Notes: a model not told the origin generated them from the letters alone. Counted from the first letter of the stretch, positions 2,428 through 48,000 are shown. The stretch is 64,000 nt of DNA from Deltaproteobacteria bacterium (GCA_024279915.1 JAJRRB010000039.1:652-64651); one strand, 5' to 3'. Made by a program: numbers and translations.

Positions 2428-4641
2428 ATGAAACTGCAAAAGATTCTGGCTGTACTGATGATTTTCTCTCTGTCGCTTGGTTCGCTTGGAACCTTCGCGC
2501 CATCGGTGTCGGCCGCTGATGATCTGACGCCTGAACAGAACCTCACGCAATTGAAAGCTGCGGCCGATGCTGCGAAAGCCGCAAAGTTGGCGGCTCTCTC
2601 TGCGGCACAAGAAGCTGCCAGGATTAAAGCTATTGCTGAAGCTGCTCTCGTAACTCAGCAAGCTGTTCAAGTTGCCGCAGAAGCAGCCGCGCAAGTTGCC
2701 GCTGATGCTGCGCAAGCCGCTGCAGACAAGATTGCCCTGGCAACTACGGATGAAGCAAAGGTTGCAGCCATGAAAGAGGCCTTGAACGCGGAGTCGGCTG
2801 CCAAGGATGCCGCCGTTGAGGTTGCCCAGGCAAACCTGGCTGTCGAGTTGGCCAGCACCTCTGTTGCCGAGGCGACTGTTTCAGTTGTTGCGGCACAAAC
2901 CGAAGTCATGAAAGCCACCACGGTTGAAGCCACGGCGACGGCCAAGGAGACCGCAGCGGTTGCTGTGATCACTTCGAGCACCGCTGCAGGTGATGCCGCT
3001 GCTGCCAAGGCTGCTGCAGATGCGGCCGCTGCCGTCAAGGCTGAGGAAATCGCCAAGCTGGCCGCGATCGAAGCGGCCACAATTGCTGCCGATCTTGCCG
3101 TTGCTGAGAAACTCGCTGAGGCGACCCGGCTGGCTGAGATTGCCGCCGCCGCCGAAGCAACGGAAGCCGAAAAAGCTGCCGCTGATAAAGCCCTTGCCGA
3201 GCAATTTGTTGCTGAAGCTGTCGCTGCCAAAGCTGCTGCGGATGAAGCTGCGGCTGCCAAGGCGATAGAAGTGGCAACCATTGCCGCTGCTCAGGCCGCC
3301 GCCGATCAGGCCGCCGCCGCTCAGGCTGCTGCTGAGGCTGAAGTTGCTGCCCAGGCTGCTGCTCAGGCTGCTGCTGACCGGGAAATTGCCCAGATCGCCG
3401 CTGCGGAAATCGCTGCCGCCGAACAGGCCGCAGCTCAAGTTCGTGCCGAAGCTGCTGCCGCCCAGGCCGCTGCTGCTACTCTGGCTGCTGCCCAGGCCCA
3501 GGCCCAGGCCCAGGCCCAGGCTGCCGCCGCTGAGGCTGCCGCGCAAGCTGCTGCGCAAGCTGCCGCCGATGTAACCGCTGCTGAGTTAGCCACCGCCACT
3601 CAGGCTGCTGCTGAGAGGGCTGCAGCCGAAGCTGCTGTCGCCCAGGCCGCGGCCGTTGCCCAGGTCGTTGCTGATGCCGCCGCCGCCCAGGCCGCCGCTG
3701 ATGCCCAGGCCGCCGCTGATGCCGCTGCTGCTCAGGTCGCCGCTGATGCCGCTGCCGCTCAGGTTGCTGCTGAAGCTGCTGCCATCGCTGAAGCCGCCGC
3801 CGCCCAGGCTGCTGCTGCTGCCCTGGCTGCCGAGCAGGCTGCTGCTGCCGAAGCGGCCGCTGCCAAGGCTGTTCTGGTTGCTGAACTGGCTGCGGCCCAA
3901 GCCGCCGCCGCCGAAGCCGCTGCCGCTGCCGATGCTGCTGCTGCCGCTGCTGCTGCCGAGCAGAGTGCCGCTGAGATTGCCGCCGCCGCTGAAGCTGCTG
4001 CTGCTGCTGAAGCTGCTGCACAGCTTGTCGCTGCTGAAGCTGAAGCTCAGGCCGTTGCTGATGCTGCTGCCGCTCAAGCCCTTGCTGATGCCACTGCTTT
4101 AGCCGCTGCCGAACAGGCTGCTGCCGAAGCTGCCGCTGCCCAGGCCGCTGCCGATGCAGCTGCTGCTGAACTGGCTGCTGCCGAAGCTGCTGCTGCCGAG
4201 CAGGCTGCTGCCGATGCTGCTGCTGCCGAGCTGGCTGCGGCTGAAGCTGCTGCTGCTGCCGCTGCTGCCGAGTTGGCTGCTGCTGAAGCCGCTGCTGCCG
4301 CGATGGCTGCTTCCGAACTGGCTGCTGCCGAGCAGGCTGCTGCTGATGCTGCTGCTGCCGAGCTGGCTGCCGCTGAAGCCGCTGCTGCCGAGCTGGCTGC
4401 TGCTGAAACTGCTGCTGCCGAGTTGGCTGCTGCCGAAGCCGCTGCCGCCCAGGCTGAAGCCGACGCTGCTGCCCTGGTTGCTGCCGAAGCCGCTGCTGCC
4501 GAAGCTGATGCTGCTGCCGTGGCTGCTGCTGAAGCCGCTGCTGCTCAGGCTGCTGCAGATGCCGCCGCTGCCGCTGCTGCTCAGGCTGCTGCCGAAGCCG
4601 CTGCTGCTGAAGATGACGATCCCGCCAGCCCCAGCTCATAA
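2428..4641 (+). CDS. Secreted, extremely alanine-rich acidic low-complexity protein (737 aa), function unknown
   Basis: RBS GGAAGGGA lies upstream of the ATG. The signal peptide is MKLQKILAVLMIFSLSLGSLGTFAPSVSA/AD. The remainder is almost only A, E, Q, D, V, L (K and T only in the first third), with pentad-like units [E/D/Q]-x-A-A-A and 10/20-aa repeats (AAELAAAEAAAAEQAAADAA). It ends EDDDPASPSS and is followed by a 9-bp hairpin. All other frames are open only because of the GCN repetition. Confidence 0.8.
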   Translation: MKLQKILAVLMIFSLSLGSLGTFAPSVSAADDLTPEQNLTQLKAAADAAKAAKLAALSAAQEAARIKAIAEAALVTQQAVQVAAEAAAQVAADAAQAAADKIALATTDEAKVAAMKEALNAESAAKDAAVEVAQANLAVELASTSVAEATVSVVAAQTEVMKATTVEATATAKETAAVAVITSSTAAGDAAAAKAAADAAAAVKAEEIAKLAAIEAATIAADLAVAEKLAEATRLAEIAAAAEATEAEKAAADKALAEQFVAEAVAAKAAADEAAAAKAIEVATIAAAQAAADQAAAAQAAAEAEVAAQAAAQAAADREIAQIAAAEIAAAEQAAAQVRAEAAAAQAAAATLAAAQAQAQAQAQAAAAEAAAQAAAQAAADVTAAELATATQAAAERAAAEAAVAQAAAVAQVVADAAAAQAAADAQAAADAAAAQVAADAAAAQVAAEAAAIAEAAAAQAAAAALAAEQAAAAEAAAAKAVLVAELAAAQAAAAEAAAAADAAAAAAAAEQSAAEIAAAAEAAAAAEAAAQLVAAEAEAQAVADAAAAQALADATALAAAEQAAAEAAAAQAAADAAAAELAAAEAAAAEQAAADAAAAELAAAEAAAAAAAAELAAAEAAAAAMAASELAAAEQAAADAAAAELAAAEAAAAELAAAETAAAELAAAEAAAAQAEADAAALVAAEAAAAEADAAAVAAAEAAAAQAAADAAAAAAAQAAAEAAAAEDDDPASPSS
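3490..3519 (+). repeat. Perfect hexanucleotide microsatellite (GCCCAG)x5 inside the Ala-rich CDS, encoding (AQ)5
   Basis: Direct reading of gcccag repeated five times; the repeat is in-frame. Confidence 0.9.
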
Positions 4642-44966: not shown

Positions 44967-45380
<414 letters not shown>

Positions 45381-45453
45381 AGTTTAGCAGGCCATTCCAT
45401 ATAACTTAAAATCAGTAGTTAAAGACATTATTCTAAAGGAGAAAGTGAAAACG

Positions 45454-46887: not shown

Positions 46888-46923
46888 GAGAAAGCCCCCA
46901 GTCACCAGACTGGGGGCTTTCTC
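46888..46923. terminator. Strong bidirectional hairpin terminator (GAGAAAGCCCCCAGT-6 nt-ACTGGGGGCTTTCTC)
   Basis: A perfect 15-bp stem lies between convergent glnA and the DUF3179 gene. Confidence 0.8.
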
Positions 46924-46957: not shown

Positions 46958-47887
46958 TTAAGGGTCATAGATGTTTGATCCTGGATATATCCCTTTCCAG
47001 ACAAACCAGTAAAGGATCATGTGATCGATGCTGTTACCCTTCTGGTCTTTGACGGTCAGGCTGTCAGTTTTCGCTTCAAATTTCAATATTATTTCTGTGG
47101 TTCCGATAGTGTCACTGATCTGCTTTTCTGCGCGCAGCTCTTTAAGTTTGTACGCCTTGGATGTTCCACCTATCTCAATACCAACCACCAACTCCTTCTC
47201 TTCCGCACCAGGTCCTCCTTTAAGAAACCCAAACAGGCCGCTGCGGCTTTCGTAGTAGCTTTCATAAGGGTCTTTTGAATAATCACGTACATGGCCGGTT
47301 GCTGGCGTTAGAGCCTCTGTATCAGGATGCTTTTTACGCCATTTGCCCCAGGTTGTCAGCGTCGAAGGCAGACGAGTCAGCTTTGTGTTGGTCATGGGAC
47401 CAGTCACGGCGTATTGCAACACCTGTGACCAGAGAGACTCGGTTTGCTGGTCGTACATCAAAACATTGGATTTGTAGAGCAGACCGGAAACGCCGAAACG
47501 GTAGGTCTGGTTGTTTATCTTCCGGGAGTACACGGCTCCCGCAAAAGCAAGTGGTCACCAGCTGACCAGTAACGGGTCGCCACCAAAATCATCATTGACC
47601 AGTTCGTGCCAGGAGAGAATACGGGTAGGATAGGCGCGGGCGATGCCGTTATGAAACACGCCAAGGACTTGATCGTCATCGGTCAGGAAATCCACCCATT
47701 TTGCCGGTAGCGTTTTCGGTTCAAAGAGGGCTGGGATGCCGTCGCGCGGAGGTCCACCGGACTGGATCTGGTCGATGTCGATACTGTGCTTGGAGTAGTC
47801 CCAGCCGGAGAGTGCAGAGGCTGGGAAGGTCAGGGTGATGAAGGCCGAGGTAATAAAGAGAATGGCCAGTGAAAGAATGCGTGTCAT
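46958..47887 (-). CDS. DUF3179-family secreted protein with an in-frame TGA (47555-47557) at the first Cys of the family's CPLC motif; candidate selenoprotein (or a nonsense pseudogene)
   Basis: RBS GGAGGTG plus ATG 47887 gives the signal peptide MTRILSLAILFITSAFITLTFPASA. The sequence ..RAYPTRILSWHELVNDDFGGDPLLVSW[TGA]PLAFAGAVYSRKINNQTYRFGVSGLLYKSNVLMYDQQTESLWSQ.. follows. Both halves are in the same frame, and 198 codons remain open after the TGA. Confidence 0.6.
47518..47546 (-). promoter_or_regulatory. SECIS-like stem-loop 9-37 nt downstream of the in-frame UGA
   Basis: The mRNA reads UGA-CCACUUGC-UUUU-G-CGGGAG-CCGUGUA-CUCCCG-G-AAGA. This gives a 6-bp GC-rich upper stem, a 7-nt loop containing GU, and a 4-bp lower stem across a G.G mismatch. 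The apical loop starts 19 nt after the UGA. Confidence 0.4.
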
Positions 47888-48000
47888 GATCACCTCCGTA
47901 ATGGTCAATCCCATTATCTCAATCTGACCACAGGCAAGTCAAATGAGTGGAGAAGTTTTGTTCATACGCCATATCCGAATCACGATTAAACCAATTGGCG

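Follow-up and report, generated by a model that had tools for sequence, protein, structure and literature searches.

A predicted exported DUF3179 selenoprotein with a U-P-L-A motif and a conserved SECIS-like hairpin following its in-frame TGA

In this study, a stretch of 64,000 nucleotides from a Deltaproteobacteria bacterium (GCA_024279915.1 JAJRRB010000039.1:652-64651, hereafter the window) was analysed. The minus-strand interval 46958-47887 is best explained as one gene encoding a predicted exported selenoprotein of the DUF3179 family, a reading to which we assign a probability of about 0.9. The gene contains an in-frame TGA (47555-47557, minus strand) that, judging from its relatives, is very probably a genuine selenocysteine (Sec) codon served by a conserved recoding hairpin. 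A first-pass annotation had proposed a Sec-encoding UGA in place of the first Cys of the family motif, followed by a SECIS-like hairpin, and this proposal has gained strong comparative backing from the conservation of the TGA and the covariation of the hairpin.

The two minus-strand open reading frames 47555-47914 and 46958-47533 lie in one frame, and the TGA is the sole interruption between them. It is embedded in the peptide DPLLVSW-TGA-PLAFAGAVYSRK, or, in a longer excerpt of the translation, GGDPLLVSW*PLAFAGAVYSRKINNQ. As had been noticed at the outset, the two frames together make up a full-length DUF3179 protein. With the TGA read as Cys, the product matches PF11376 over both parts (263.9 bits, E=2.6e-78) from residue 57 to residue 293, covering positions 1-238 of the 292 in the model, and the match is unbroken across the TGA. 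For family membership, most of the model has to be matched with a score above the PF11376 gathering cut-off of 27 bits, as is the case here. No NCBIfam model matches the window DUF3179 protein or four of its homologues. The frame check also agrees with the earlier statement that the 198 codons downstream of the TGA are open. The complete recoded gene thereby comprises 309 codons, with Sec as codon 111 and a TAA stop at 46958-46960.

The real start of the gene is probably ATG 47887 and not ATG 47914, because a Shine-Dalgarno sequence GGAGG is located upstream of the former at 47897-47893 and because of the starts of homologues, e.g. that at locus L001. ATG 47914 would lengthen the protein by 9 codons and falls in a promoter-like -10 box. 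This box belongs to a sigma-70-like match on the minus strand at 47913-47942 (TTGACT, an 18-nt spacer and (TG)GATAAT), which agrees with the consensus in 10/12 positions and is a consensus match only.

A changed genetic code in which TGA would be read as sense is rejected, because TGA is an ordinary stop in 16 of the 44 long open reading frames of the window. The recoding is therefore site-specific and the code is the standard one. A script scan of the 64-kb window for other genes with an in-frame TGA did not reveal a second credible one. The pair MurJ/Ogt, which came up as a read-through candidate, was discarded as merely two neighbouring genes sharing a frame by chance. The gene for the Ogt-type methyltransferase (PF01035, 40879-41385, plus strand) follows murJ in the same frame past the murJ TGA stop and so mimics a read-through candidate in automated scans; it encodes an ordinary Cys active site, PCHRV. 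The Ogt-type methyltransferase family is listed as a selenoprotein family in some bacteria (PMC13188914).

Across the 62 full-length family members that were aligned, the TGA falls in a column of invariant Cys, and an invariant Pro-Leu comes next (C120, P121 and L122). The claim that the TGA replaces the first Cys of C-P-L-C, with the second Cys exchanged for Ala, is thus supported by the alignment, in which the second Cys is at least 90% conserved. An alignment of homologues in search of further TGA-containing members had been suggested earlier, and it was productive. Among 82 related loci, the motif column holds TGA in 47 and TGC or TGT in 35, bearing out the proposed Sec/Cys pair, and TAA or TAG in none. 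The 47 TGA loci, which also carry the hairpin, span 41-90% identity to the window protein; one of them, with 77% identity, stems from an uncultured Geobacteraceae MAG. The tblastn matches in relatives cover residues 1-316 and run through the TGA, which indicates that both halves of the protein are under protein-level constraint.

The same codon has left its mark on public gene calls. Of the best 120 protein matches, 40 are C-terminal fragments of ~190 aa with 65-82% identity that start just past the TGA, at the GTG or ATG of "(M/V)YSRK". In the clade with the motif UPL[A/S], the gene is called as two DUF3179 pieces of ~105 aa and ~192 aa, both matching PF11376, as in locus L083 (1061-1378 and 1400-1978). 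Judging from these calls, gene callers truncate the whole clade at the TGA. At locus L002 (3001-3327, from an uncultured Nitrospiraceae MAG), a TGA-bearing DUF3179 homologue is apparently frameshifted or degraded past the motif and may be a selenoprotein gene in decay or a product of misassembly.

The conserved SECIS-like upper stem-loop occupies positions 47523-47541 on the minus strand, corresponding to alignment columns 17-35 counted from the U of UGA. It consists of the 5' arm CGGGAG (47541-47536), the loop CCGUGUA (47535-47529) and the 3' arm CUCCCG (47528-47523). In the minimum-free-energy structure, the hairpin is extended by a 4-bp lower stem, UUUU/AAGA, below a G.G mismatch (47518-47546 in total, minus strand). 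Columns 17-35 fold on their own at -8.6 kcal/mol, and inclusion of the lower stem brings the energy to -13.1 kcal/mol. In comparison with shuffled sequence, the hairpin shows no excess stability (z=-0.34), and the fold by itself proves nothing.

The element was instead assessed in a gap-free alignment of 63 nt from the UGA onward, comprising 42 distinct TGA loci. A hairpin at +17 to +35 is common to all 47 TGA loci. In the 42 distinct sequences, 94.2% of the cells are paired in the upper helix (columns 17-23/29-35), compared to 52.4% in the lower helix (columns 12-15/37-40). All parts of the hairpin outlined in the first-pass annotation thus exist in the window as described, but the 4-bp lower stem is not conserved and was dropped from the conserved element. 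RNAalifold independently finds the core pairs 19-22/30-33.

Two pairs of the upper helix covary. At pair 22-30, 38 sequences have G-C, one has G-U and three (L008, L026 and L027) have A-U, formed by an Ile AUC codon together with a Tyr UAU codon. For pair 21-31, A-U or G-U is seen in 37 sequences, and C-G in L012, L035 and L014. In L012 and L035, a Gly GGC codon is paired with a Ser-to-Ala GCC codon, and in L014 GGC is paired with GUC. The compensatory variants at 21-31 and 22-30 are found in different subclades of a neighbour-joining tree; Fisher tests of the covariation gave p=3e-4 and 8e-5, values that ignore phylogeny. Locus L036, with the motif U-P-V-A, has a wholly different 6-bp stem, CCGGUC/GACCGG, in the same location. 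Both L036 (796-858, UPVA..VFDR) and L014 (2753-2815, UPLA..VFVR; stem CGGGCG/CGUCCG) are divergent homologues in which a position-matched hairpin is formed from other nucleotides.

The third-codon positions 18, 30 and 33 within the stem have an entropy of 0.45-0.48 bits, compared to 1.5-1.9 bits at flanking third positions. Such near-frozen synonymous sites indicate that the RNA itself is constrained, beyond any constraint on the peptide. The Gly wobble column 21, also in the stem, has 1.42 bits and is the covarying partner in pair 21-31. In the same columns, Cys-type loci form 2.8-3.05 of 7 pairs versus 6.6 in TGA loci. Taken at the level of sequence comparison, the hairpin is maintained by selection on the RNA and is specific to the TGA forms. 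The peptide G-(A/V)-V-Y-S-R behind the active site, where Cys forms have G-T-G-M-A-F-D, may be held in part by the SECIS RNA stem and not by protein function.

Published constraints for bacterial SECIS (bSECIS) elements (PMC13188914, section 5) are (i) an apical loop of 3-9 nt on an upper stem of 4-16 bp, (ii) a G among the first two loop positions, (iii) an apical loop lying 16-37 nt past the UGA and (iv) a minimum free energy of at most -7.5 kcal/mol. The window element, with a stem of 6 bp and a loop of 7 nt, lies within rule (i), and most relatives have 7-8 bp and 3-5 nt. The distance from UGA to loop is 19 nt in the window, so the spacing of ~19 nt noted earlier does fall into the range used for predicting bacterial elements. 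The upper hairpin alone, with -8.6 kcal/mol, conforms to rule (iv). The element differs from the bSECIS model in rule (ii) taken literally, as the first G of the window loop CCGUGUA is at position 3 and not at 1-2. The rule is satisfied in 33 of 42 relatives, whose loop is either GUN or CGUGU, the latter shortened by a closing U-A pair; all 42 loops contain GU or GG.

A second difference is the lack of an Rfam match. The covariance-model scan proposed with the first-pass annotation did not deliver a SECIS family: no Rfam model matched the window at the gathering threshold, and at E up to 10 only chance snoRNA hits were obtained near the site. Bacterial SECIS elements are heterogeneous, so a missing match comes as no surprise. 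The likeness to the prototype of these elements, that of E. coli fdhF, lies in a coding-region stem-loop just 3' of the UGA with a small, GU-containing apical loop. In E. coli fdhF, the minimal helix begins 11 nt past the UGA and the loop GU is at +23/+24, whereas in the window the helix begins 13 nt past the UGA and the loop GU is at +25/+26. The bulged U of fdhF is not present in the window element.

The conservation of the codon and the hairpin bears on whether the TGA arose by nonsense mutation or through a sequencing or assembly error, in which case the gene would be a pseudogene or the codon would really be TGC or TGT. The contig does have lesions or errors, as the adjacent glnB carries a 1-nt deletion and an in-frame TAA, and the stability of the hairpin alone is insignificant. 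Yet the identical TGA recurs in independently assembled loci down to 41% identity and is never replaced by TAA or TAG, the protein is conserved on both sides of it, and the covarying hairpin occurs only alongside TGA forms. A mutation or an error is extremely improbable, and on the comparative evidence conservation has effectively refuted it. A real stop at the TGA would yield two polypeptides, one of 110 aa from the N-terminal part and one of 191 aa restarting at GTG 47533, much like the separate ~105 aa and ~192 aa products in public gene calls. Such a split is highly improbable, since the seven codons between TGA and GTG (PLAFAGA) show in-frame conservation and line up with the core motif of the family, and since GTG 47533 is located inside the conserved hairpin loop with no Shine-Dalgarno sequence before it. 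In addition, an AlphaFold2 model of a Cys homologue predicts a single compact domain with beta-strands through the junction at pLDDT >90.

The UGA could also be recoded by SelB and the hairpin with insertion of another amino acid, e.g. Cys by a tRNA with a UCA anticodon. UCA-anticodon tRNA variants that deliver Cys exist in nature. The window itself offers no components of the Sec pathway: no tRNA gene was found in the 64 kb, including tRNA(Sec), which counts against the Sec reading, and no selA, selB or selD domains were detected when 30 long window ORFs were searched against Pfam, a scan that left several ORFs of 250-334 aa outside. The Pfam matches in these 30 ORFs were to exopolysaccharide and chemotaxis proteins, LeuRS, MurJ, Ogt, ThrC, malic enzyme, PFK and MutS. 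The closest named relatives of the window are Desulfuromonadales, with a near-identical PFK, and Geobacteraceae, with the closest genome locus. Genomes of Geobacter and Desulfuromonas are reported to encode 6-8 selenoproteins, SelD among them (PMC1794560), and by analogy the lineage is Sec-competent. The Sec-type forms, moreover, have lost the second Cys and essentially all others, which fits a residue unlike Cys and not a cryptic Cys. Insertion of some other amino acid is for these reasons very unlikely, and the same holds for the UCA-tRNA example, which presumes a genome without selenophosphate-dependent Sec synthesis. By analogy with the named genomes, non-Sec insertion is an unlikely event in a lineage of the Geobacter/Desulfuromonas type.

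The preferred reading is hence Sec insertion, for which we infer the following course. A ribosome would reach the UGA at 47555-47557, and the mRNA stem-loop 13 nt further on would be bound by SelB together with GTP and Sec-tRNA(Sec). The bound element would be the 6-7 bp G+C-rich stem with its GU-containing apical loop starting 19 nt past the UGA. SelB would then deliver Sec, termination would be averted and 198 further codons would be translated. The predicted precursor has 309 residues and carries Sec where the family has its invariant first Cys, giving U-P-L-A in place of the C-P-L-C of Cys forms.

The gene had been put forward as a candidate new selenoprotein, and this has to be withdrawn, as DUF3179/PF11376 is already catalogued. 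The DUF3179 domain-containing protein (pfam11376) is a listed selenoprotein family with the motif UxxC/T (PMC9312934, 2022). It also appears with one Sec under "Predicted with high confidence" (PMC13188914, 2026, Table 1), that is, as a prediction only. Both sources credit Zhang & Gladyshev 2007, a study of Olavius symbionts (PMC1976440). The window gene is an unannotated, mis-annotated member and a motif variant of this catalogued predicted family. It shares with the family the PF11376 domain, one Sec that opens a CxxC-type motif, the former deltaproteobacterial lineage and the grounds of the prediction, namely a Sec/Cys pair and a downstream stem-loop. It is set apart by the listed motif: the window protein has U-P-L-A and its clade UPLA, UPLS or UPVA, and neither UxxC nor UxxT is found in the window protein. 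According to a rule in PMC13188914, forms with differing Sec-related motifs are distinct subfamilies.

These results widen the Sec motif of the family from UxxC/T to UxxA/S. Through sequence comparison, covariation included, they strengthen the case for a SECIS element in a family hitherto listed only as predicted. They are also of value for annotation, since the gene and dozens of public relatives are called as products of ~105 and ~190 aa that should be merged into one selenoprotein. The current understanding of Sec decoding is unchanged.

Two clades of TGA forms emerge from a rough neighbour-joining tree, one of UPLT forms and a larger one of UPL[A/S] forms that includes the window protein. 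The UPLT clade (L038-L046, L058, L070 and L079) agrees with the catalogued UxxT, and UxxC forms were absent among the 47 TGA loci. The UPL[A/S] clade is sister to the UPLT forms, and the CPLC forms are separate. Three Cys forms with CPLA (P0002, P0015 and P0041) are nested in the Sec clade of this rough tree, which suggests that an exchange of Sec and Cys occurred within it. The Cys-type CPLC proteins, which make up the bulk of PF11376, are 41-54% identical to the window protein over the full length and have in common with it the invariant residues Y-P, W-H-E..N-D, GVSG, ESLWSQ and R-D-Y. Unlike the window gene, they have TGC or TGT at the motif, keep the second Cys and are without the hairpin.

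The second Cys is retained in 33 of 33 CPLC forms. In the stretch that begins 75 residues before the Sec and ends at the C terminus, the 42 distinct Sec forms contain essentially no other Cys, with the exception of one stray Cys in one sequence, and the window protein has zero Cys. The Sec forms being without other Cys, the selenol would act alone and an intramolecular selenenylsulfide would be impossible. The lone selenol most likely serves as a nucleophile or as a metal or metalloid ligand toward a partner molecule, as far as can be judged from residue conservation. A more tentative idea, which we consider possible but somewhat doubtful, is that UPL[A/S] constitutes a distinct DUF3179 selenoprotein subfamily in which the gain of Sec was accompanied by loss of the CxxC partner and of all other Cys. 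If this is true, the exported mature protein would carry a lone selenol on a fold without a solved relative, and its chemistry would lie beyond the usual UxxC selenenylsulfide redox cycle, e.g. in periplasmic binding or transfer of metals, metalloids or chalcogens. With no partner Cys in the Sec forms, fewer kinds of chemistry come into question for this widespread exported domain of unrepresented fold.

Export is suggested by the N terminus of the precursor, which has a basic n-region, a hydrophobic core and an A-S-A motif. The predicted signal peptide MTRILSLAILFITSAFITLTFPASA (47813-47887, minus strand), read from the sequence, would be cleaved before LSGWDY, between FPASA and LSG, and the protein is thus presumably exported or periplasmic. 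The AlphaFold2 model of the Cys homologue P0002 has a pLDDT of 90.2 and a pTM of 0.86, with an N-terminal helix at residues 2-18. A Foldseek search of this model against the PDB gave nothing significant (best E=0.08), and no PDB sequence matched the DUF3179 protein.

The gene stands alone between a convergent glnA and an upstream thrC. The order thrC-DUF3179-glnA is confined to the closest relatives, and no conserved operon partner was found in the flanks of 24 loci. Between the convergent DUF3179 and glnA genes, a GC-rich inverted repeat with a perfect 13-bp match, AAAGCCCCCAGTC..GACTGGGGGCTTT, is located at 46891-46920. It is probably a shared bidirectional terminator, a putative assignment made from its sequence and location; the terminator scan omitted it because its T-run fell under the rule of the tool. 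Elsewhere in the window, a Pfam search with E up to 1e-6 gave no match for a 737-aa ORF within an exopolysaccharide cluster (2428-4641, plus strand).

Just upstream of glnA, the gene glnB for PII (45043-45381, plus strand) is apparently disrupted. One nucleotide is missing from its Phe11 codon (AAACCCTCAAGCTT, ~45073), and at 45243-45245 an in-frame TAA takes the place of the Glu found in the close relatives L034 and L006, both of which have an intact glnB. This glnB is either a pseudogene or affected by local sequence errors. At four of the 24 loci (L013, L020, L022 and L027), an ORF of ~230 aa (MDRRLWYIKN..LFSWLEEEEL..) adjoins a Sec-type DUF3179 gene, and by its sequence this recurring ORF might encode a Crp/Fnr-type regulator.
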